The notes beneath the pieces are model-generated. The model saw only the letters and a program-made list of their open reading frames with translations, made no database searches and was not told the origin of the DNA. Shown in pieces: positions 17,806 through 29,732 of a stretch of DNA of 64,000 nucleotides. Position 1 is the first letter of the stretch, and every line of letters starts with the position of its first letter. A program made the position numbers and the translations under genes. The stretch comes from Candidatus Bathyarchaeia archaeon (GTDB lineage: Archaea > Thermoproteota > Bathyarchaeia > Bathyarchaeales > DTEX01): positions 19,334-83,333 of the forward strand of contig JAWBXL010000001.1 of assembly GCA_038867895.1 (NCBI GenBank), given 5' to 3'.

Positions 17806-18345
17806 TTGCAATGTGATGTTTGTGGTCGTGAAATTATTGGGAAACCGCATAGGGTGATTATTGAAAAGGCTAGAGTGATCACGTGTGCTGAGTGTGCAAA
17901 GCTTGGTTCAGATTACTGGACTCCAAAAGATGAAATCTACCAGAAAAAAGATGCTCCAGTCTTATTGAAGAGCACAAAGCCAATCGCAGGAAATAAATAT
18001 TTCCGTGATCAGCTGCCTTCACTAGATAATCTTGAGATAATTGAAGGCTTTGGATTAATAGTTAAAAGAGCGCGTGAGAAATTAGGTTTAACACCCGAGG
18101 GTCTTGGCAGGATGATTGGAGAGAAGGAGTCTGTAGTAAAAAAGATTGAGAGCGAGAAAATTATCCCAGACGTTAGGTTAGCGGCTAAGCTCGAACGGGC
18201 ACTAAGGATAAAACTGTTAGTTAAGCAATCTGAAACAGACTTAGATAGGTCGATCAGCGCTTCAATGAAAAGAAAAAGGAGTCTTACATTGGGCGAGATT
18301 GTTCAAATAAAGGGAAGTGAGAGGGGAGAGACGGACGAGGAATAG
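17806..18345 (+). CDS. mbf1: Multiprotein bridging factor 1 (Zn-ribbon + Cro/C1 HTH)
   Basis: 179-aa ORF with N-terminal CDVCGREI...CAECAK and an HTH region REKLGLTPEGLGRMIGEKESVVKKIESEK. Confidence 0.85.
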   Translation: MQCDVCGREIIGKPHRVIIEKARVITCAECAKLGSDYWTPKDEIYQKKDAPVLLKSTKPIAGNKYFRDQLPSLDNLEIIEGFGLIVKRAREKLGLTPEGLGRMIGEKESVVKKIESEKIIPDVRLAAKLERALRIKLLVKQSETDLDRSISASMKRKRSLTLGEIVQIKGSERGETDEE

Positions 18346-19603
18346 GGCGATAATAGTATATCGAAGAGAACACTTCGAAAAATCATGTATAGAGGAGCTT
18401 AAAAGCTTGGCAGAGGCAGCTGGTTATGAAGTTGTTGGCATAGTTGAGCAGGTAAGATCTCCTCACCCACGCTATAATATAGGTCCAGGAAAAGCTAAGG
18501 AGCTCGCTCAGATGGTTAAAGATTTAGGGGCGGAGAAGATAATCTTTGGAAACGATCTTAAAATCGTTCAGATATATAACCTTGCTAAAATAACTGGCGT
18601 GGAAGTAATTGATCGTTTTCAGCTGATTTTAGAGATATTTGTTAAAAGAGCCTCAACGAAAGAGGCTAAATTACAGATCGAGCTGGCACGGTTGCAGTAT
18701 GAGCTAGCTCACGCCAAAGAAAAGGTTAGGCTTGCTAAGATGGGTGAGCAGCCCGGCTTTCACGGACTGGGTAGATATGAAGCAGACATTTACTACAATG
18801 CGATTAAAAGAAGAATTCATAAAATTCAGGAGAAGCTTAGAGAGATTAGAAAATTAAGAGAAGTTCACCGTGCGCGTAGAGTCGAGCTTGATTTCCCACT
18901 AATATCATTAACTGGATATACAAATTCTGGTAAAAGCACGCTTTTTAATGTTCTGACGAAAGAAAATGTTTTTACCAGTCCTAACGTCTTCACAACTCTC
19001 TCTACAACAACAAGGGCTATAGAGATTTTTGGAGAAAAGGTCTTAATAACGGATACTGTTGGGTTCATAGATCGTTTACCCATAACCCTAATCGAAGCCT
19101 TCTACTCAACATTGGAAGAGATCACTTTTTCCGATCTAATCTTGCTAGTTATTGACGTAAGTGACTCCCTTGATGAAATCTCAAGGAAGTTTATAGCTTC
19201 CCTTGAGGTTTTGAGAAAGATAGGTGCAATCGGAATACCTATAATAGTTGCATTAAATAAGATCGATTTATTATCTCAAATGGAAGTGGATGAAAAAATT
19301 AGATATCTGAGCGCAACCTACAGGAATTTAATATTTGTCCCGATATCCGCCCTATATGGAACTAATCTAAATTTACTTAAGATGGAAATGGCTAAGATTT
19401 TGAGAAGATATAGGGATTTAGCCTTCTCAATACCCGTGTGTGAGGAATCGCTTTCCTTTCTCTCATGGGTTTATGAAAATACAAACGTGTATAAAGTGAC
19501 GTATAATGGAGATTCCCTTGAAGTGCATATTGGTGCTCCGCAAAATTTGGCAGAGAAGATAAGAGTTTTCGTTGAAAGGATTGGTGGTAAGTTTGTGCAA
19601 TAA
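18317..19603 (+). CDS. hflX: GTPase HflX
   Basis: 428-aa ORF with an HflX N-domain, G1 GYTNSGKSTLFN, G3 DTVGF and G4 NKID. Confidence 0.9.
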   Translation: MRGERRTRNRAIIVYRREHFEKSCIEELKSLAEAAGYEVVGIVEQVRSPHPRYNIGPGKAKELAQMVKDLGAEKIIFGNDLKIVQIYNLAKITGVEVIDRFQLILEIFVKRASTKEAKLQIELARLQYELAHAKEKVRLAKMGEQPGFHGLGRYEADIYYNAIKRRIHKIQEKLREIRKLREVHRARRVELDFPLISLTGYTNSGKSTLFNVLTKENVFTSPNVFTTLSTTTRAIEIFGEKVLITDTVGFIDRLPITLIEAFYSTLEEITFSDLILLVIDVSDSLDEISRKFIASLEVLRKIGAIGIPIIVALNKIDLLSQMEVDEKIRYLSATYRNLIFVPISALYGTNLNLLKMEMAKILRRYRDLAFSIPVCEESLSFLSWVYENTNVYKVTYNGDSLEVHIGAPQNLAEKIRVFVERIGGKFVQ

Positions 19604-20141
19604 ATATGATTGGAGAGTCTTTGTTCTCAGACTTGGACATAGATCTGAGAGAGACAAGCGTATTACAACACATGTTCTCTTAGTTGCTAGAGCTTTCGGT
19701 GCTCATGGAGCATTTTATAGTGGTCAGAGAGATGAGAAAGTTGAGGCAAGTATTAGGAAGGTTGTAGAGTCGTGGGGAGGACCCTTTAGTATAGAATATG
19801 TTGAAAACTGGGTTAAAAAGATAAAAGAATGGAAAAGGAATGGTGGCGTAGTCATACACCTAACTATGTATGGTCTGCCATTAAATGAAGTTATTCAAGA
19901 GATAAGGAAATCTGAAAAAGACAAGCTTATAGTTGTTGGTGGAGAAAAAGTTCCAAGAATTGTTTATGAACTCTCTGATTGGAATGTTTCAATAACATCC
20001 CAACCGCATTCGGAGGTAGGGGCTTTAAGCGTTTTTCTACATGAACTGTATATGGGGAGGGAGCTTAAGAAGGAGTTTGAGAATGCAAAAATAAAAGTTA
20101 TCCCAGAGGCAAAGGGAAAGAAAATTATAAAAATATCATAA
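19572..20141 (+). CDS. trm56: tRNA (cytidine56-2'-O)-methyltransferase aTrm56
   Basis: 189-aa ORF with VLRLGHRSERDKRITTHVLLVARAFGA. The start is ambiguous because there are several in-frame TTG/GTG codons at 19572-19593. Confidence 0.85.
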   Translation: MKGLVVSLCNKYDWRVFVLRLGHRSERDKRITTHVLLVARAFGAHGAFYSGQRDEKVEASIRKVVESWGGPFSIEYVENWVKKIKEWKRNGGVVIHLTMYGLPLNEVIQEIRKSEKDKLIVVGGEKVPRIVYELSDWNVSITSQPHSEVGALSVFLHELYMGRELKKEFENAKIKVIPEAKGKKIIKIS

Positions 20142-20237: not shown

Positions 20238-20747
20238 ATGCCAATTGTGAGCCATGACGTATTAATCAAGGTCGCATGCGCTGTTGGTGGCGAAGATGCA
20301 GCTAAGATAATTGAGGTTCTTAGTCAGAATAATGAGATGACTGAAGATGAGATAGTATCTAAAACTGGAATAAAGCTTAATGATGCCCGAAAAACACTCT
20401 ATAAACTTTATGAGCATTCTATAGTTGGACTAAGACGAGTTAGAAGTAAGGATACTGGCTGGTTTACATTTTATTGGAGGGTGCAAATGGATCAGATTGA
20501 GGGTTTCATAATAGGGCAAAAGAGGCGTATATTAGAAAAACTTGAGAAGAGGCTTGAATATGAAAATAATCACAGCTTTTATTACTGTTATACTCCTGGA
20601 TGCAAGCGCTTATCTTTTGAGGAGGCGACAGAATATTTATTTAGATGCCCTAAGTGTAATAAGTCGCTAACATATTATGATAACAGTAAAATAGTGGAGA
20701 ATCTCAAAAAGAAGATCGAAAAGATTAAAAGTGAGTTAAATGAGTGA
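20238..20747 (+). CDS. tfe: Transcription factor E (TFIIE-alpha homologue)
   Basis: 169-aa ORF with an N-terminal winged helix and a Zn ribbon CYTPGC...CPKC. Confidence 0.8.
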   Translation: MPIVSHDVLIKVACAVGGEDAAKIIEVLSQNNEMTEDEIVSKTGIKLNDARKTLYKLYEHSIVGLRRVRSKDTGWFTFYWRVQMDQIEGFIIGQKRRILEKLEKRLEYENNHSFYYCYTPGCKRLSFEEATEYLFRCPKCNKSLTYYDNSKIVENLKKKIEKIKSELNE

Positions 20748-21945: not shown

Positions 21946-23298
21946 GTGAAGTCTCAGGCGATGGATGTGGCAGTGGATCTTGTTCTGAAGGAAGCTAAGA
22001 TATGTTATTCCGGAAACAAATTAATTGAGGCTGGAATAGCTATTGATGAGGGAAGAATAGTTAGGGTTGCTAAAGATGTTAATCTTCCAAGTGCCTCGGA
22101 GAAGATAAATTTAAATGGTATGCTTGTTCTTCCGGGAGTTATAGATGTTCATGTTCACTTAAGAGACCAGGAATTGTCTTCTAAGGAAGATTTTTATTCT
22201 GGTACGTGCGCCGCCGCTAATGGAGGTGTGACCCTTGCTGTCGATATGCCAAACAATAGACCAGTAACCATGAGTTCAGGGACGCTAAGGGAGAGGATGA
22301 GGATAGCCTCCAAAAAGATAATAATTAATGTAGCTTTTTATTCAGCCTTCCCAGAGAATATCGACGAAATAAAGCAAATAGTACATACTGGTGCAAAAGC
22401 ATTCAAGATATTTCTGTCTCATAAGGTTGGTGGATTAGATCCGGATGACGAAGATAAGGTGATAAGCGCTTTTAAGGAGGTTGCGGACGTTAATGTTCCA
22501 ATCGCTGTTCATGCGGAGGATAGTGTTTTCCTTCGTGAGAAGCTTAAGAAAATAGGGAATCAAAATAGTATTGACGCTTACCTTGAAGTCCATTCCGTAG
22601 AGGCGGAGATACGGGGGATTATGCGTGTAATAAGGTTTATGAGAGAGACCAGTGCCCGTGTGCACGTATGTCATGTTAGCACTTCTGAAGGGCTGAAAAC
22701 AATATTGCGTGAAAAGTCTCGTGCTCTCCCGATATCATGTGAGGCTACGCCACATCACTTGCTTCTCTCGGAAAAGGATTTTAAAAAAATTGGTAATATT
22801 GCGCTTATGAATCCACCGCTTAGACCTTTATCTGATACTTTATATTTGCGATGGGCGTTAGAAAACGGTTTAATTGATGTTGTTGCATCTGACCACGCCC
22901 CTCACGCGTTAAGAGAAAAAGATGCTTCCTCTATATGGGATGCTTCTGCTGGAATACCTGGTATTGAAACCATGCTTCCTTTAATGCTAACCATGGTTAA
23001 TAAGGGGCAAATATCAATATCGACTCTAGTTAAAGTTCTCTCAGAGAACCCCTCAAGAATTTTCGGGTTTAAAGATCGTGGTCAAATTATTGAGGGATTT
23101 TATGCAGATCTTGTCGTCGTCGATCTAAAGCGAGAGTGGACTATAGATTCATCAGAGTTTTATTCAAAGGCAAAGTTCTCTCCGTTTGATGGTTGGCGTG
23201 TTAAGGGAAAACCAGAAAAAACATTTGTGAACGGTGTGCTAGTAATGGATGAGGGAGAGATCATAGCTAAGCCAGGAAGTGGTAAAATAATTGTATGA
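21946..23298 (+). CDS. pyrC: Dihydroorotase (cyclic amidohydrolase family)
   Basis: 450-aa ORF with VIDVHVHLRD, AFKIFL, AVHAED, CHVS and ASDHAPH. Confidence 0.85.
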   Translation: MKSQAMDVAVDLVLKEAKICYSGNKLIEAGIAIDEGRIVRVAKDVNLPSASEKINLNGMLVLPGVIDVHVHLRDQELSSKEDFYSGTCAAANGGVTLAVDMPNNRPVTMSSGTLRERMRIASKKIIINVAFYSAFPENIDEIKQIVHTGAKAFKIFLSHKVGGLDPDDEDKVISAFKEVADVNVPIAVHAEDSVFLREKLKKIGNQNSIDAYLEVHSVEAEIRGIMRVIRFMRETSARVHVCHVSTSEGLKTILREKSRALPISCEATPHHLLLSEKDFKKIGNIALMNPPLRPLSDTLYLRWALENGLIDVVASDHAPHALREKDASSIWDASAGIPGIETMLPLMLTMVNKGQISISTLVKVLSENPSRIFGFKDRGQIIEGFYADLVVVDLKREWTIDSSEFYSKAKFSPFDGWRVKGKPEKTFVNGVLVMDEGEIIAKPGSGKIIV

Positions 23299-23307
23299 GG
23301 AGGAATT

Positions 23308-23799
23308 ATGAGCGACATTAAGTTCATGGTTGATGGAATGCTTGGTAAAGTTGCTAGATGGTTGCGGATGCTAGGTTATGATACGAAATATGCTGGTGAT
23401 TTGCATGACGACGAAATACTGAAGATTGCTGTTAATGAGAGGCGAATCATATTAACTAAAGATTATCAGCTTTTTAGAAAAGCCAATACTAATGGAATTA
23501 AAGCAGTTTTTGTGGAAGGGAGAACACATATTGAAAAGATGATAGATTTATCAAGGCAGCTTAACATCAGGTTAGAGGTAAGTATTGAGAAATCGCGGTG
23601 CCCAAAATGCAATTCTCCGATCAAATTAGTAGAGAAAGAGAGCATTAAAGATAAAGTGTTGTCCTCAACCTATAAGGCATATAATGAATTTTGGGTTTGT
23701 ACTGGGTGTGAGCAAGTATATTGGAAGGGCAGTCACTGGAAGAAAATAAATGAATCTTTAAATAAAGTTAAAATGCTTCTGCCTGAAAACTCTAACTAG
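23308..23799 (+). CDS. Mut7-C / DUF82 PIN-like RNase domain protein with Zn ribbon
   Basis: 163-aa ORF with N-terminus MVDGMLGKVARWLRMLGYDT and C-terminal CPKC...CTGC. Confidence 0.75.
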   Translation: MSDIKFMVDGMLGKVARWLRMLGYDTKYAGDLHDDEILKIAVNERRIILTKDYQLFRKANTNGIKAVFVEGRTHIEKMIDLSRQLNIRLEVSIEKSRCPKCNSPIKLVEKESIKDKVLSSTYKAYNEFWVCTGCEQVYWKGSHWKKINESLNKVKMLLPENSN

Positions 23800-24506
23800 G
23801 ATACTTCTATTACACTTTTATCGATAATTTTTATCTTTCCAATTTTCTTGTTCCGTAAAATGTTGTTGAGAATAAGTATCCTCTCAAAAGCATTTGGTGA
23901 GGCTAATAGCGGGCATATTAAAACATCATGGCACTTATCAATACTTGATATTATTTCTGCCACTCGCGAGTAATATAATTTTGTTGACGAGCCGCATTTT
24001 TCTTCAATAGCCTTATAGATCTCCTTTATATGTGGGCACTTCTCGTAGAACCGTTCTTCTGGGCAAACATAGTATTTAAAACTTTGAATTATATTGCTCT
24101 CGGGCAGCATCTTTTTGAGCGCGCTAACATCTATTCTCCTGTTAATCTTTCTCTCATTAACTTTATTTTCCGCATATTTTAAGAGAAGTTTACTTATTGT
24201 TGAGGAGCCTTTGCTAAAGAGTATTTCTTCTTGGACTATTTGATTATTAGTTGGTACGTATTCACCTATCCAGAGACCGGAACGTCCATTCTGTATGACT
24301 GGTCGTATCATGAAACCCCATGATCTCTGCTGTGTTCTCTCAAGTAACCACTCCGCATCATCTAATAAGCTTCCATATCCCCTAATATCTCGAAATATAA
24401 GTTTGCCAAAATCCCTATCAAAGATAATAATCACGCTGCCAAGCTTCAGATCTTTTAATTTCTTTCTAGGCATTTGAACCCTTAAAGGTGATGGCAAGCG
24501 AAACAT
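23796..24506 (-). CDS. Hypothetical protein, Cys-rich C-terminal half
   Basis: 236-aa ORF with no motif I recognise. Cys pattern: YYVCPEERFYEKCPH...KCGS...KCHDVLICP. It overlaps the Mut7-C gene tail-to-tail by 4 nt. Confidence 0.5.
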   Translation of the reverse strand: MFRLPSPLRVQMPRKKLKDLKLGSVIIIFDRDFGKLIFRDIRGYGSLLDDAEWLLERTQQRSWGFMIRPVIQNGRSGLWIGEYVPTNNQIVQEEILFSKGSSTISKLLLKYAENKVNERKINRRIDVSALKKMLPESNIIQSFKYYVCPEERFYEKCPHIKEIYKAIEEKCGSSTKLYYSRVAEIISSIDKCHDVLICPLLASPNAFERILILNNILRNKKIGKIKIIDKSVIEVS

Positions 24507-24634
24507 TTAAGTTTTTATTAATGCTTATCCATTAATGCTTCGTAAAATTTATATTTACTTTAATATTTTAGAGTGCATCAAACATGCAGAGCGTACTCAA
24601 ATATTCGTTCCTAAATGATATGTGAGGGGGAGAG

Positions 24635-24934
24635 ATTATTAAACCTGTATTTGGGGAGCTTGAGAGTGTAGATTCTGAGAGTCAAAAAAAGAGGATCCTG
24701 ATTGGGCCGCTTAAACTCACCCGCTTTGAGAAAGCTAGAATCGTGGGCGCGAGGGCATTACAAATAGCTATGGGCGCCCCAATTTTAATAGAAGTCAAGG
24801 AAAATTTAAGAAGTCCAATAGATATTGCGCTTGAGGAACTGAAGCGCGGTATCCTACCAATAACGATTCGCAGAACCCTTCCAGACGGAACCTACCAAGA
24901 CATACCCCTAAAATGGCTTCTAGAAGAGGAATAA
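24635..24934 (+). CDS. rpoK: DNA-directed RNA polymerase subunit K (Rpo6)
   Basis: Conserved core [27 protein letters not shown]...[12 protein letters not shown]. The track ORF starts at GTG 24743, inside the conserved helix. The frame is open from 24626 with no ATG/GTG/TTG before 24743, so the start drawn here (ATT 24635) is provisional. Confidence 0.75.
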
Positions 24935-24939
24935 AAGTG

Positions 24940-25060
24940 GATTGCCAGCTTCCCTGGCTTCGCGGGGCCGAAGACCCCACTAAAACCAGGGACGGAACGC
25001 GGTTTAACTTCCAAGTTCGGAATGGGTTTGGGTGTTTCCCGCGCCCTTTGGCCGGCAATC
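24940..25060 (-). rRNA. 5S: 5S ribosomal RNA
   Basis: The minus strand reads GAUUGCCGGCCAAAGGGCGCGGGAAACACCCAAACCCAUUCCGAACUUGGAAGUUAAACCGCG...GCUGGCAAUC. It has a 10-bp terminal helix I and the universal loop C/helix III motif CCGAAC..GAAGUUAARC. Length 121 nt. Confidence 0.9.
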
Positions 25061-25117
25061 CAAGATAATCTTGGATGAGCTCTGGCTCTTAACTTTTTCG
25101 CTTAAATGTGGGCATAA

Positions 25118-25128
25118 GATATATAAAA
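25118..25128 (+). promoter_or_regulatory. TATA-box-like element upstream of tRNA-Trp
   Basis: AGATATATAAAA lies about 30 nt upstream of the tRNA 5' end. Confidence 0.4.
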
Positions 25129-25173
25129 TGGATTTTTCCCAATTTTTTATGTTGGTGGGGCTGTGGTCTAGCA

Positions 25174-25201
25174 TCAGTCCACTATGAATGGACTGCTAGA
25201 A
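25174..25201 (+). other. tRNA intron 1 (D-loop, 28 nt)
   Basis: BHB with central helix CTAG 25168-71 / CTAG 25196-99, bulges CAT and AAA, and a 7-bp inner hairpin 25175-81 / 25189-95. Confidence 0.75.
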
Positions 25202-25213
25202 AGGTATGACGAC

Positions 25214-25249
25214 TGCGTTAATGCGGCTCTAGTCCGCTTAAGCCGTTAA
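25214..25249 (+). other. tRNA intron 2 (anticodon stem, position 28/29, 36 nt)
   Basis: BHB with central helix GACG 25208-11 / CGTT 25244-47 (one G.U), bulges ACT and AAG, and a long inner hairpin 25215-26 / 25234-43. Its removal creates the anticodon-stem strand AC|GGG. Confidence 0.75.
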
Positions 25250-25258
25250 GGGCTCCAG

Positions 25259-25318
25259 ATGCCAGAAGACGGGTTTGCTGACCCGCCTGGGAATGAAGAT
25301 TATCTGGAGCTTGGAGAA
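25259..25318 (+). ncRNA. tRNA intron 3 (canonical 37/38, 60 nt) with box C/D guide-like architecture
   Basis: BHB with central helix CTCC 25253-56 / GGAG 25313-16 and bulges AGA and AAA. Internally there is a D' box CUGA (25278-81), a C' box AUGAAGA (25293-99) and two antisense elements complementary to the tRNA anticodon arm. Confidence 0.6.
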
Positions 25319-25361
25319 ACCCGTAGGTCGCCGGTTCAAGTCCGGCCAGCCCCACCAACAC

Positions 25362-25378
25362 TTTTAATGCGGATTTTT
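25362..25378 (+). terminator. Oligo-T tracts downstream of tRNA-Trp
   Basis: T4 at 25362-65 and T5 at 25374-78, directly after the CCA end. Confidence 0.35.
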
Positions 25379-25449
25379 GAATCACCCTTATAAATATTCT
25401 ATTTTTAGAAATTAGTACAGCGACTCTTCGCTTATATGAGGTTAATGCT

Positions 25450-26709
25450 ATGTGGACCTCCAAGAAGTTTGCCTACGTGTCTCTGAAAGAAGCATATCTC
25501 TTAATAAGAGAGGTAGTGAAAGAAAAGCTTTTGGAAGAAGTTGTGCCAGTTTTTCAGGCATATAACCGTGTTTTGGCCGAGGACGTCATATCTAATGTGA
25601 GTATACCTCCCTTCAGCGTTTCCCATGTCGATGGGTATGCTCTCAGATCAGAGGATACCATTAAAGCATCCATAAATAACCCAGTCTCATTGAAGGTTGT
25701 TGGCAGAATTTATCTTGATGAAGGTTATAGAGGCGGGGTGAAGAGCGGTGAAGCGGCATATATCTCGACTGGTTGTGCTCTGCCAGATGGAGCCGATGCG
25801 GTGGCGCCTGTTGAGAGGGTTAGGGATAAGGGAGATTACATCGAAGTTTTAAGACCATTAAAACCAGGCGAGAATGTTATTCCGGCGGGAGCTGATATAA
25901 AAAGGGGAGAAAAAGTTTTTAGTGTTGGTCGAATTCTACACGCCCAAGACGTCAAGCTTCTAATGGATATGAAGAAATGGACCGTTAAAGTCTTTAGGAA
26001 GCCAGTTGTCGCCATGATCTCTATTGGAAGTGAACTCACAAATCGAATTGAGGAGGCTGATAAAAAGAAATTTGATAGCCATTCCATGGCAATATCAATT
26101 TTAGTTAGCGAAGCTGGCGGTGTCCCACTTAGCATGGGAATAGCGCCTGACGAGACTCACGCCATTATTAATATGCTGAAGGAGGGGCTTAAGAGGGCAG
26201 ATATTGTGGCAACCATAGGAGGGGCCTCCATAGGTGAGAAAGACTATGTTCTTGAGGCGATAAGGCAGATTGGCGAGTCGAAGATTGTGATCCGCGGAAT
26301 TAGGGTTCAGCCGGGTAGAGTTACAAGTCTATGCATGTTAGATGGTAAGCCTATCGTAATGCTCCCGGGGCACTTCCAGTCAACGTTAGTTGGGTTCTAC
26401 GCAGTTCTCCTGCCGTTAATTCGCCTTTTCAGCGGGCTGGAGCCTATAGACTCCTACCTAACAGTAAGGGCGAAGCTCTCCCGCAAGATGATTATAAGAG
26501 AGTTCCTGCCTTTTGAGAGGGTTAGGTTTGTTAAATTGATAAGAGTCTCGGGAGACTATTTTGCTGAGCCAATTTTAGGCAACTCCTCCCTAGTAAGCGT
26601 AGTCACAAACTCAGATGGCTTCATAATAATACCGCAGGGAAAAGAGATTATTGAGGAAGGGGAGGAAATTGATGTACATCTTCTTAAGGGGCTATACCCA
26701 TTTAAATAA
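25450..26709 (+). CDS. moeA: Molybdopterin molybdotransferase MoeA
   Basis: 419-aa ORF with a MoeA domain layout, including VSHVDGYALRSED and TIGGASIGEKDYV. Confidence 0.9.
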   Translation: MWTSKKFAYVSLKEAYLLIREVVKEKLLEEVVPVFQAYNRVLAEDVISNVSIPPFSVSHVDGYALRSEDTIKASINNPVSLKVVGRIYLDEGYRGGVKSGEAAYISTGCALPDGADAVAPVERVRDKGDYIEVLRPLKPGENVIPAGADIKRGEKVFSVGRILHAQDVKLLMDMKKWTVKVFRKPVVAMISIGSELTNRIEEADKKKFDSHSMAISILVSEAGGVPLSMGIAPDETHAIINMLKEGLKRADIVATIGGASIGEKDYVLEAIRQIGESKIVIRGIRVQPGRVTSLCMLDGKPIVMLPGHFQSTLVGFYAVLLPLIRLFSGLEPIDSYLTVRAKLSRKMIIREFLPFERVRFVKLIRVSGDYFAEPILGNSSLVSVVTNSDGFIIIPQGKEIIEEGEEIDVHLLKGLYPFK

Positions 26710-26741
26710 CGACCACTTCAAGCAGCATTTAATAGAAATTT

Positions 26742-27188
26742 TCAGCTTCTACTCTTCAATTTTTTGATGGCTTCAACTGCTCTATTAGCCACTTCTAGAA
26801 CAACCCTCTCCTCCTTAGTGCCAAGTCTCGCTCTATTCTTTATTCTATCGATCTTTAGGCCCATTTCTTTAATCGTGTGGGAGACAATAATTGTCTCCGC
26901 TGGCTTGTACCCTTGCCCCTCCAAGATCTTACTCATACACTTACGATCACACCCCTCAATGGCGATAACTCTGTTAGGGTTTTCCCTAACCATCTTGACA
27001 TCCTCCTCAACACCAGTTACAAACGCTGGTAGGCAGAGGAGCAGAGTCTCGTTTGGCATAATCTTGTCCACAACAACGTAAGCCGCTTGCCGAGATACTG
27101 TGCCAACAGTCTGCCCGACACCAGAGCATGGAGCTATTACAAACTTACCTAAGAACTTATGTTTTTCCATACTACTCTCCCTTAACAT
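26742..27188 (-). CDS. DGC-domain (putative zinc-binding) protein
   Basis: 148-aa ORF with IAPCSGVGQTVG, LLCLPAFVTG and AIEGCDRKC. Confidence 0.6.
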   Translation of the reverse strand: MLRESSMEKHKFLGKFVIAPCSGVGQTVGTVSRQAAYVVVDKIMPNETLLLCLPAFVTGVEEDVKMVRENPNRVIAIEGCDRKCMSKILEGQGYKPAETIIVSHTIKEMGLKIDRIKNRARLGTKEERVVLEVANRAVEAIKKLKSRS

Positions 27189-27194
27189 GTTCTG

Positions 27195-28195
27195 TTAGAC
27201 CTCATTTGTGCGCAATCTTCTGATATATGCTCTTACAGCGTCTATGAGCGTCACCAAGAAGAGCATGATAAAGAGGATTAGTATTGCTGTCTGGACGTAG
27301 GCTGCCATGACTCTTGTGGGTAATAGTTCATGGAGGATTTTTATGGTGGCTCCGTGGATTGATGCTGAGGCGAAGACTAGCACTAGCCAGAAGGTCACTA
27401 GCCCATAGATTGGTCGTCGCTTCCTGAGAACATATGCTGTCGCGGCCGTTAGACCTATTGATGCCATAAGCTGGTTGCATATGCCAAATATTGGCCATAT
27501 TGTGCTTATGGTTCCAGTTTGAAGCAGATAACTCCATAAGAAAGCCGCGGTGCCTGTGAGGGCGAGCGTGCTCACCCACCACTCACGTGGCTTTGCCGTA
27601 GTTACTCCTAAGGCATCCTGAACAAAATATCTAGCCATTCTAGTCCCATAATCCATTATTGGCATTATGAAGATGGCTGTCCAAGCTACCATGAAGAGGT
27701 AGAGCTGCCTTAAATTCTCTTCCTCCAAAGAGGGCTGCTAATGTTTCAGCGGCGCTTACGCTAAAGGATACTACCCCACCAGTCCTTCCCACAAGGTTAA
27801 AGCCTAGAGCATTTGAAAGCCTTTGGAGTTCAAGAGGCTGCATATTTAGGCTGGCGTAAACAGATGGGCTAGTGTTTATTGCGAAATAATCCTGCGGGTA
27901 TAAAAGACATGCTAGGGTTAGAGCGACCACGGCTATCATACTTTCGAGAAGCCACCCTCCATAAGCCACAACCCTTACATCAGATTCCTTATCTATACAT
28001 TTTGGGGCTACTCCTGAGCAGCAAAGACTATGCCAACCAGATATTGCACCACAAGTTATAATTATGAATAGAAAGGGCCATAAAGCGCCTGAAACTACAG
28101 GGCCGCCTACAAACGCATAATCCATTATTACGATACTTTCTAGAGCTGCTATAAAACAAATTAAGCCCGAGGGCTGTCTTAGTGGAATCATACGT
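27195..28195 (-). pseudogene. cstA: Carbon starvation protein CstA remnant (5'-truncated, frameshifted)
   Basis: Two overlapping frames (27640-28281 and 27195-27728) carry consecutive CstA motifs: LFIIITCGAISGWHSLCCSGVAPK, AYGGWLLESMIAVVALT, then IMPIMDYGTRMARYFVQ and WPIFGICNQLMASIGL. The frame switches near 27720-27745. The roughly 200-300 N-terminal residues expected for CstA are absent. Confidence 0.75.
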
Positions 28196-28922
28196 GTGGG
28201 TGCATCAAAGATTGCTGGAGAGCATGTTCTCCCATGCATTATTAGCAACTTTAAGAGGAATAATCCTTCAGTAGATTTCAACCTTGAAATTCTAGATCTC
28301 TCTCAGATTATGGAAAAGATCAGTAATGGGGAGATAGATATTGCCTCTTACACTAAACCATGCGGTGTAGAAATGCTGGAAGGGGAAATCGGAATAGCAA
28401 GGGATGAACTAGTGGTCATAACGCCACCTGGCCATAATCTTACAAAAAGAGAAGATATAACATTAGAGCAGATACTAAGATATCCATTAATACTTTATGA
28501 CACAGGTTGTGAAGTTAGCAATCTACTAAACGAATTTTTCAGGCTAAATGGGATAAGAGTTGAGAGTTTAAAGGTTAAAATGCTTATGCCAGACGTTTCA
28601 AGCTCAATAATCGCCGTCTTAGAGGGTTTAGGCTTAAGCTTCTGCCCTGAGCTTCTAGCCAAGAAGGCAAAACGGGCCGGGGTTAGTGGACATAATTCAT
28701 GTCCTAGATGCCGAGAATGCAATTTACTTAATTTGCATATCAAGATGTGAAAGAGCGCAAAGCGACGCGCTTAACGAATTCTGGAAGTACCTAACAACAA
28801 TCTTAAAGAAATTTAGAGGAAACCTTCCATGTATGCTTAGAATATTATATCTATTAGGTATAGTAAAAGTTCAGAATATTAGTCTTTCACCAGTAATCAA
28901 GAGGCGGGAATGGCATCTCTAA
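28196..28922 (+). pseudogene. LysR-type regulator remnant (HTH domain missing, frameshifted C-terminus)
   Basis: ORF 28196-28750 begins at the linker/substrate-binding domain (GASKIAGEHVLPCIISNFKRNNPSVDFNLEI) with no HTH upstream. The C-terminal LysR-like segment (AIYLICISRCERAQSDALNEFWKYL) continues in another frame from about 28686. Confidence 0.6.
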
Positions 28923-29674
28923 GAGGATTCAAAGCAAAGTCTTTCAAGACCGAATTCGTATGTTGCTGATGCGATTGTGACTCCATAAAAAATTACTCTT
29001 TTCTTTTTCTCATGGCATAACCTCAAAATTTCATCTATAGTGCCATTAACTATTGTTGAACCTGTCGCTACAACTATATCGCTCCATTTGATGGCTTCTT
29101 TGTTCCCTTCATAGGATTCTATTAACACACCTCTCTTTACTTGCCCAATGTTAGCAGAATCCATATCCGTGACTCGAAAGTTCTTAAATGTTCTTGAGAG
29201 GTTATAGGCTATTGCTGGCTGAAAGCCTATCATCAGTAGTTTACATTTAGACGACAGGTTTGAAGCCAAGTGTTCAGCGATTTTCCTACCGCATAAATCT
29301 GGTCCCTCGTCCCTACAGTGAACAGTATTTGTTACTAACCCAAGATGTCTGTAGATAGCGTTTGCAACAGCAATGAAAATAGCCCTGTTTCTACTTGTGG
29401 TTAGCTCTAACTGCTGAACGTCTTTTAGGTTTCCCTCATAATAAAATGGTTCATCTGTATAAGCTTGTCCAAGCGCCCCTCTAAACTCGGCCTGAATCAT
29501 CACCTCACGCCCCTTACAAAGAGGAAAGTCTGCTTGAGATGGCCTGCCAATAGCCTCTTCAGAATTAAGCCCCCGCACCTTAACGGTCACTTCAGAATTT
29601 TCAAGACCATTTGTTAAGACTTTCTCCCACCATCTTCTTTTCAACTCTTCAATTAGCGTCATGAACCCTCCCAC
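28919..29674 (-). CDS. DUF364/DUF4213-type Rossmann-like (putative metal-chelation) protein
   Basis: 251-aa ORF with C-terminal VVATGSTIVNGTIDEIL...VIFYGVT. Confidence 0.6.
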   Translation of the reverse strand: MGGFMTLIEELKRRWWEKVLTNGLENSEVTVKVRGLNSEEAIGRPSQADFPLCKGREVMIQAEFRGALGQAYTDEPFYYEGNLKDVQQLELTTSRNRAIFIAVANAIYRHLGLVTNTVHCRDEGPDLCGRKIAEHLASNLSSKCKLLMIGFQPAIAYNLSRTFKNFRVTDMDSANIGQVKRGVLIESYEGNKEAIKWSDIVVATGSTIVNGTIDEILRLCHEKKKRVIFYGVTIASATYEFGLERLCFESS

Positions 29675-29732
29675 TTCAAGTAAACCTTTAACATATCTTA
29701 ATCTAAAAGACGTAAAATTTATATATGTAACG

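Follow-up and report, generated by a model that had tools for sequence, protein, structure and literature searches.

The window analysed here, a 64,000-nucleotide stretch of a Candidatus Bathyarchaeia contig, contains at 25157-25357 on the forward (+) strand a transfer RNA (tRNA) gene that we read with high confidence as a functional tRNA-Trp(CCA) gene of thermophilic Bathyarchaeia, interrupted by three endonuclease-type introns. Its exon and intron layout, its splice junctions and its conservation are established by sequence comparison. The architecture at this locus is far beyond chance. Its elements are as follows, with lengths in nucleotides (nt).

25119-25128, +: TATA-box-like archaeal element ATATATAAAA, about 30 nt 5' of the tRNA; putative promoter
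25157-25173, +: exon 1, GGGGCTGTGGTCTAGCA; acceptor 5' strand, U8, G9, D-stem 5' strand and D-loop to A17
25174-25201, +: intron 1, 28 nt, in the D-loop at 17/17a; motif type HBh'
25168-25171 with 25196-25199, +: central helix of intron 1, CTAG with CTAG
25175-25181 with 25189-25195, +: inner hairpin of intron 1
25202-25213, +: exon 2, 12 nt, AGGTATGACGAC; remaining D-loop, D-stem 3' strand, G26, A27 and C28
25214-25249, +: intron 2, 36 nt, in the anticodon stem at 28/29; motif type HBh', inner hairpin with two 1-nt bulges
25208-25211 with 25244-25247, +: central helix of intron 2, GACG with CGTT
25250-25258, +: exon 3, 9 nt, GGGCTCCAG; G29-G31 and anticodon loop 32-37, with anticodon CCA at 25255-25257
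25259-25318, +: intron 3, 60 nt, at the canonical 37/38; motif type hBH, its exon-side helix being the anticodon stem
25253-25256 with 25313-25316, +: central helix of intron 3, CTCC with GGAG
25319-25357, +: exon 4, 39 nt; A38, anticodon-stem 3' strand, variable loop AGGTC, T-arm and acceptor 3' strand, ending in discriminator A73 and the encoded CCA (25355-25357)
25362-25365 and 25374-25378, +: T-runs TTTT and TTTTT; likely archaeal oligo-T termination signal

The three-intron structure had been proposed in a first-pass annotation of the window, whose transcription of the 201-nt sequence is identical to ours. Removal of 25174-25201, 25214-25249 and 25259-25318 joins exons of 17, 12, 9 and 39 nt into the 77-nt product given there. 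ARAGORN calls this joined product tRNA-Trp(CCA) with a normal cloverleaf, in agreement with the proposed identity. The joined exons form a 7-base-pair (bp) acceptor stem, a D-arm and a T-arm with a GTTCRA loop, and place CCA at positions 34-36. The unusually short exon of 9 nt that had been claimed is GGGCTCCAG at 25250-25258, and it does carry the anticodon. At introns 1 and 3 the splice sites can slide by 1 nt with the product unchanged, as the junctions have A/A repeats. The 77 related loci with enough flank have a TATATA(A/T) element approximately 30-38 nt before the tRNA, and CCA is encoded in 60 of 77 relatives. The T-runs at 25362-25378 presumably act in termination, as we assume from archaeal termination in general.

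Orthologues were gathered in two scans. A genome scan of one genome per species, queried with the 3' exon, gave nine loci from hot-spring metagenome-assembled genomes (MAGs); eight are from Bathyarchaeia or Bathyarchaeota MAGs and one, L004, from an 'uncultured archaeon'. A metagenome scan queried with the 17-nt 5' exon gave at least 120 loci. In all, nine species-level genomes and more than 100 metagenome contigs carry the gene. Combined, the scans give at least 83 distinct pre-tRNA-Trp sequences of 131-244 nt, whose introns fall at four fixed sites (17/17a, 28/29, 37/38 and 43/44). Seven presence/absence patterns were found over 83 orthologues; they are given here as digits for the four sites in that order, with counts among the matches listed.

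Pattern 0010: 2 distinct sequences
Pattern 0011: 4 distinct sequences
Pattern 0110: 21 distinct sequences
Pattern 1010: 3 distinct sequences
Pattern 1011: 10 distinct sequences
Pattern 1110, that of the window: 15 distinct sequences
Pattern 1111: 28 distinct sequences

The window gene is a multi-intron tRNA gene, with at least two independent BHB-type (bulge-helix-bulge) introns that are each missing in some orthologue. Conservation is concentrated in the exons. The closest relative is L001, from MAG GCA_038866775.1, which was matched via the neighbouring MoeA gene. L001 shares 99.5% identity with window positions 22449-29709; the 201-nt gene differs at five positions, all of them in intron 2. 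In L005, synteny with the window extends over 7.4 kb, at 81.7% identity. In L005, L008, L009, L011 and L012 the exons are 100% identical to those of the window and the flanks 75-82% identical. Within the three-intron group, exon identity is 97.4%, against 79%, 77% and 83% for introns 1, 2 and 3, respectively. The one variation of exon 1 among relatives is G9/A9, a choice left open in the search pattern. As the pattern prescribed the remaining 16 positions, their invariance is not independent evidence. The 9-mer GGGCTCCAG occurs in 83/83 sequences, in part by construction, as the parser kept only sequences containing it.

Natural alleles that lack an intron provide a direct comparison for the predicted splice sites. 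Those without intron 1 (for example L072 and L062: GTCTAGCAAGGTATGACG) show the predicted junction of GTCTAGCA with AGGTATGACG, and those without intron 2 (for example L060, L090 and L129: ATGACGACGGGCTCCAGA) show that of ATGACGAC with GGGCTCCAGA; in relatives lacking intron 2 the junction is GACGAC followed by GGGCTCC. The sites proposed in the first-pass annotation for both introns thus occur ready-joined in nature. All 83 relatives splice to a 77-nt product called as tRNA-Trp(CCA). The mature sequences, of which 31 are distinct, pair in 95% of cloverleaf cells, compared with at most 54% when partners are slid, and five cloverleaf pairs show compensatory change. The first-pass annotation had also argued that removal of intron 2 restores the anticodon stem by joining AC to GGG. 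This argument gains from pairs 27-43 (A-U, G-C, U-A and U-G) and 28-42 (C-G and U-A), which join exon 2 to exon 4 and covary across introns 2 and 3.

Each intron had been assigned a BHB motif, and the helices and 3-nt bulges were found at the positions proposed: CTAG/CTAG (bulges CAT and AAA), GACG/CGTT (ACT and AAG) and CTCC/GGAG (AGA and AAA). Motifs were scored as 4 exon nucleotides, a 3-nt bulge and the intron-side helix on one strand, and 4 intron nucleotides, a 3-nt bulge and the exon-side helix on the other. All three introns of the window have 4/4 central pairs, and each splice site falls after the second nucleotide of a 3-nt unpaired stretch. The strict hBHBh' form, in which both flanking helices have at least 2 Watson-Crick pairs (PMC7714728), is present in none of the three; each lacks one flanking helix, and the motifs are of the relaxed types HBh', HBh' and hBH. 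The assignment therefore stands for the 4-bp helices and bulges and not for the strict motif. Pairing in the window and its relatives is as follows.

Intron 1, CUAG/CUAG: 4/4 central pairs in 55/56 relatives (intron strand CUAG or CUGG); intron-side helix 7 bp; exon-side helix 1 bp (U-G)
Intron 2, GACG/CGUU: 4/4 in 53/64 relatives; intron-side hairpin with two 1-nt bulges; exon-side helix 1 bp (U-G)
Intron 3, CUCC/GGAG: 4/4 in 33/83 and at least 3/4 in 83/83 relatives; intron-side helix 0 bp; exon-side helix 5 bp (anticodon stem)

The inner hairpins covary. In intron 1, compensatory change was seen at 6/7 pairs, with 92% of cells paired compared with at most 54% with partners slid, and none of 500 shuffles attained the observed covariation score. 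In the intron 2 hairpin, the first inner pair forms in 59/59 sequences and the second in 58/59, each through several pair types.

A fourth intron of approximately 30-42 nt interrupts the gene at 43/44 in at least 28 distinct sequences, all of which splice to a 77-nt tRNA-Trp. The corresponding position in the window, CCCGT followed by AGGTC, is the intron-less junction for this site. The motif of intron 4 has a central helix of ACCC with GGG(U/G/C), bulges GUA and AAA or AGA, and a covarying hairpin whose first pairs are paired in 39/39 sequences with several pair types. Four species-level Bathyarchaeota MAGs carry all four introns, and at least 24 further four-intron sequences come from metagenomes (for example L015, L017, L033 and L126). 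The loci in the MAGs are:

L004: 1259-1498, +
L006: 1845-2085, -
L007: 135-376, +
L010: 1848-2090, -

The stated maximum is three introns per archaeal tRNA gene (PMC4033280, 2014; PMC8450103, 2021). The four-intron relatives appear to exceed this published ceiling by one, and to do so outside the Thermoproteales. Literature searches, whose coverage was incomplete, found neither a published four-intron archaeal tRNA nor a report of tRNA introns in Bathyarchaeia.

Standard tools were blind to the unspliced gene, as expected for a locus with three introns. ARAGORN found no tRNA gene in the whole window, and with its intron option made no call on unspliced 25157-25357. Rfam at gathering thresholds gave no tRNA match in the 64-kb window and found 5S ribosomal RNA (rRNA) alone. 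The tRNA-finder and covariance-model check suggested in the first-pass annotation therefore had a split outcome: negative on the unspliced locus with ARAGORN and Rfam, and positive on the spliced 77 nt with ARAGORN. When applied to unspliced relatives, the intron mode of ARAGORN labelled 38 of them Gln, Ser, Ala or others, each with one 75-120-nt intron. A search of both strands of the 64 kb for a T-arm with a perfect 7-bp acceptor partner at most 330 nt upstream returned the tRNA-Trp locus as the sole instance. A permissive Rfam search of 25050-25450 gave a transfer-messenger RNA at 21 bits, below the threshold of 47, which was dismissed as a match to no more than the tRNA-like acceptor stem and T-arm; sR40, at 12 bits, was sub-threshold noise. 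A scan for sigma-70 promoters and intrinsic terminators, which is not applicable to archaea, gave nothing at the locus.

Three metagenome loci that share the 17-nt 5' exon, L065, L101 and L104, are not Trp and were excluded from the tRNA-Trp set. Each has an insertion, either in the T-arm or in the anticodon region. Their anticodon region, CTTGGGGTG in L065 and L101 or CTTGGGGGA in L104, makes tRNA-Pro their probable identity. Non-canonical introns may therefore occur in further tRNAs of related organisms.

Intron 3 has, in addition to what the first-pass annotation described, a layout resembling that of a box C/D guide RNA. In archaea, the intron of tRNA-Trp houses a box C/D small RNA (sRNA) guiding Cm34/Um39, and is typically approximately 65 nt long because of the nested guide (PMC4090602, PMC11408192, PMC7994747). 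Sulfolobus, Haloferax and Thermococcus have Cm34 in their tRNA-Trp (PMC7668247). The elements in intron 3 run in the order AAGACGGGUUUG (12 nt), CUGA, a CCC...GGG stem, AAU, AUGAAGA, UUAUCUGGAGCU (12 nt) and UGGA, and are placed in the window as follows.

25266-25277, +: candidate D' guide AAGACGGGTTTG, followed by D' box CTGA at 25278-25281
25282-25299, +: putative kink-turn (K-turn); CCC/GGG stem of 25282-25284 with 25289-25291, AAT loop and C' box ATGAAGA at 25293-25299
25300-25311, +: candidate D guide TTATCTGGAGCT, exactly 12 nt, followed by D-like box TGGA at 25312-25315

The D' guide pairs with AAACCCGT (AAACCCGU) at the 3' splice junction over 8 contiguous pairs, which sets the fifth nucleotide upstream of D' (CUGA) opposite C39. 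The D guide pairs with GGGCTCCAGAT (GGGCUCCAGAU) over 11 contiguous pairs, with the fifth nucleotide upstream of its box opposite C34. Both sides thus have guide geometry, with guides of about 12 nt that each set the fifth nucleotide before their box against the target. At the D' guide and box, ACGGGTTT is kept in the 1xxx groups. The K-turn pattern xxGA-CC...GG-(G/A)AT-GA is present, at the sequence level, in 64/64 distinct versions. Its third stem pair shows covariation, forming in 38/52 compared with a shuffle mean of 21.5 and maximum of 32. TCTGGAG is invariant in 83/83 relatives. The D-like box reads TGGA in the window, GTGA or TTGA in most relatives and xxGA in most members of the 1xxx groups; at 25312-25315 it overlaps the splice-motif strand GGAG. 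On this evidence we favor the view that intron 3 acts as a box C/D guide for the methylation of C34 and C39.

Within 25250-25311, the minimum free energy (MFE) fold of the precursor pairs the anticodon loop GGGCUCCAGAU with AUCUGGAGCUU in intron 3 and has no CUCC/GGAG helix. The D-guide duplex excludes the splice helix and is more stable than it, which suggests that methylation would come first, or would be carried out in trans by the excised intron. After methylation the precursor may refold and then splice, as a switch between methylation-competent and splicing-competent folds. In reviews of the nested guides of Haloferax volcanii and Pyrococcus sR50 pre-tRNA-Trp, which cite Clouet d'Orval 2001 and Singh 2004 (PMC4090602, PMC7994747, PMC11408192), a similar arrangement is described: a long canonical intron (median 65 nt, compared with 60 nt here), two guides complementary to both sides of the anticodon stem-loop with 34 and 39 as predicted targets, and a guide fold that excludes the splice motif. 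Intron 3 differs from these accounts in that box C is unrecognizable, the D box is UGGA and C' is AUGAAGA rather than RUGAUGA. Position 39 is moreover C and not U, two further introns are present, and the guide is a predicted one.

We consider it likely that tRNA-Trp in Bathyarchaeia forms a natural intron gain/loss series over four fixed sites, with one to four introns and the window gene as one state, in which intron 3 is a degenerate but probably active box C/D guide, its D box overlapping the splice helix and methylation being coupled to splicing by a conformational switch. Several observations weigh against the three-intron reading or the guide. Intron 3 has no intron-side helix, and its central helix contains a C34/A mismatch in most relatives. 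A fold with all three motifs enforced reaches -59.3 kcal/mol compared with -83.4 kcal/mol for the MFE fold, approximately 24 kcal/mol worse, and unconstrained folding did not reproduce the splice motifs of introns 2 and 3; support for the motifs is therefore comparative, not energetic. The covariation of the anticodon stem involves strand 39-43, which was placed partly by complementarity in intron-4 sequences; only where intron 4 is absent does the distance from the T-arm fix its position independently. Intron 3 contains no box C consensus (RUGAUGA), the best candidate, CAGAUGC, spanning the 5' splice site with a 15-nt spacer. Its D-like box is UGGA, not the consensus CUGA, and no significant match to an Rfam C/D family was found at 25050-25450. 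The two-intron 0110 relatives have neither the D' complementarity nor an in-register D box.

The missing box C, the overlap of the UGGA box with the splice helix, the lack of an Rfam C/D match and the loss of guide features in the 0110 relatives would all suit a plainer account, namely that intron 3 is an intron and nothing else, its anticodon complementarity and GA motifs being by-products of the splicing motif or relics of a decayed guide. The targeting of Pyrobaculum tRNA-Trp C34 by a separate trans-acting sRNA, sR26 (PMC6009581), and the dispensability of the Haloferax intron and its methylations (PMC4090602) point the same way. This account is a possible but less probable alternative. The invariant TCTGGAG (83/83) lies outside the GGAG splice strand, and exactly 12 nt separate C' from the D-like box. 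The fifth-nucleotide rule yields C34 and C39, which match the pair of positions in Haloferax, and the C'/D' K-turn is conserved with a covarying stem. A decaying tRNA-Trp pseudogene with insertions, with an uninterrupted functional copy elsewhere in the genome, would explain why ARAGORN and Rfam detect no tRNA at the locus, but is very improbable: species with flanks of no more than 75-82% identity have identical exons, insertions occur at the same four sites in 83 sequences with conserved splice motifs and compensatory changes, the upstream promoter is conserved, and every spliced product is a perfect cloverleaf. Even less credible is some other intron arrangement, such as a single long intron, encoding another isoacceptor. 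The labels Gln, Ser, Ala and so on that ARAGORN assigned to 38 unspliced relatives in intron mode would be in its favor, yet these calls disagree across orthologues, are absent for the window locus and ignore the invariant GGGCTCCAG exon, and the one-intron relatives L045 and L064 are unambiguously tRNA-Trp(CCA). A73 with G1-C72 and G2-C71 also fits what we take to be archaeal Trp identity.

For the functional three-intron gene, processing may be pictured as follows. The gene would be transcribed from its own TATA promoter at approximately 25119-25128, and the precursor ends would be matured as in established archaeal tRNA processing. By analogy with archaeal tRNA biology, EndA would cut the six sites, RtcB ligase would join the exons, and the released introns would probably be circularized. 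The motifs of introns 1 and 2 are predicted to be self-contained hairpins whose central helices use C12-G15 and G23-G26. Both D-stem strands are sequestered in this way, so the D-arm would form only once neither intron is left. Intron 3 has the anticodon stem as its exon-side helix, and intron 2 interrupts the 5' strand of that stem between AC and GGG. Excision of intron 2 would make the helix continuous, and we therefore predict that it precedes the excision of intron 3 or is independent of it. Relaxed BHB motifs at non-canonical positions are cut by EndA of the (alpha-beta)2 or epsilon2 type (PMC4033280, PMC4090602). As all three motifs are relaxed, the host should have a broad-specificity EndA of one of these types.

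Multi-intron tRNAs with relaxed BHB motifs have been described mainly for the Thermoproteales (PMC4033280, PMC8450103), with cases in Pyrobaculum, Thermofilum and Caldivirga (Sugahara 2008 and Fujishima 2010, as summarized in those two papers). The window gene matches this known kind in every respect tested, but in Bathyarchaeia, another class of Thermoproteota. As far as those summaries describe them, the Thermoproteales genes likewise have as many as three endonuclease-type introns, of which one is canonical and the rest are non-canonical, with relaxed BHB motifs (hBH, HBh') and very short exons, and they are missed by standard finders. Unlike those systems, a single gene can here be traced through seven intron states at four sites, and its relatives reach four introns. 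Nuclear tRNAs of the red alga Cyanidioschyzon merolae also have up to three BHB-type introns, some of them in the D-loop or D-stem, with the order of removal dictated by motif stability (PMC3728597). That system is eukaryotic, differs in its endonuclease and is not homologous to the window locus.

The surroundings of the gene are archaeal in character, with aTrm56, TFE-alpha and an Rpb6 homologue in the window. The following genes and ORFs (open reading frames) lie near the tRNA.

24940-25059, -: 5S rRNA gene (Rfam RF00001, 75.2 bits), divergent, 97 nt upstream of tRNA-Trp
19572-20141, 20238-20747 and 18317-19603, +: upstream genes, with aTrm56, a TFE/TFIIE-alpha homologue and a GTPase among them
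23796-24506, -: 236-aa ORF between a gene with a Mut7-C domain and the Rpb6 homologue; no Pfam match
25218-25463, -: 81-aa ORF overlapping the tRNA-Trp gene
24795-25058, -: 87-aa ORF overlapping the 5S rRNA gene
27195-27728 and 27640-28281, -: overlapping short ORFs, both matching Pfam CstA in a related MAG

A 5S-like sequence upstream of tRNA-Trp is also present in L001, L005, L006, L008, L009, L011 and L012. The match to aTrm56, the tRNA Cm56 2'-O-methyltransferase, has E = 7.5e-52. From its GTP-bdg_N, GTP-bdg_M and MMR_HSR1 domains, we read the upstream GTPase as HflX-like. The two ORFs that overlap the RNA genes are almost certainly spurious. CstA proteins are normally several hundred residues long, and the ORFs at 27195-27728 and 27640-28281 may be a split or frameshifted CstA gene.

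As standard tools are blind to the locus, MAGs could seem to be without tRNA-Trp, and tRNA-based completeness counts could be off. Automatic annotation of MAGs from Bathyarchaeia relatives likely misses or mislabels this tRNA. As the splice helix overlaps a putative guide box and the guide duplex is the most stable fold, the locus also suggests how methylation and splicing may be ordered when a pre-tRNA needs three or four excisions. With identical exons and independently varying intron sites, tRNA-Trp in these archaea forms a clean natural data set on the gain and loss of endonuclease-type introns.

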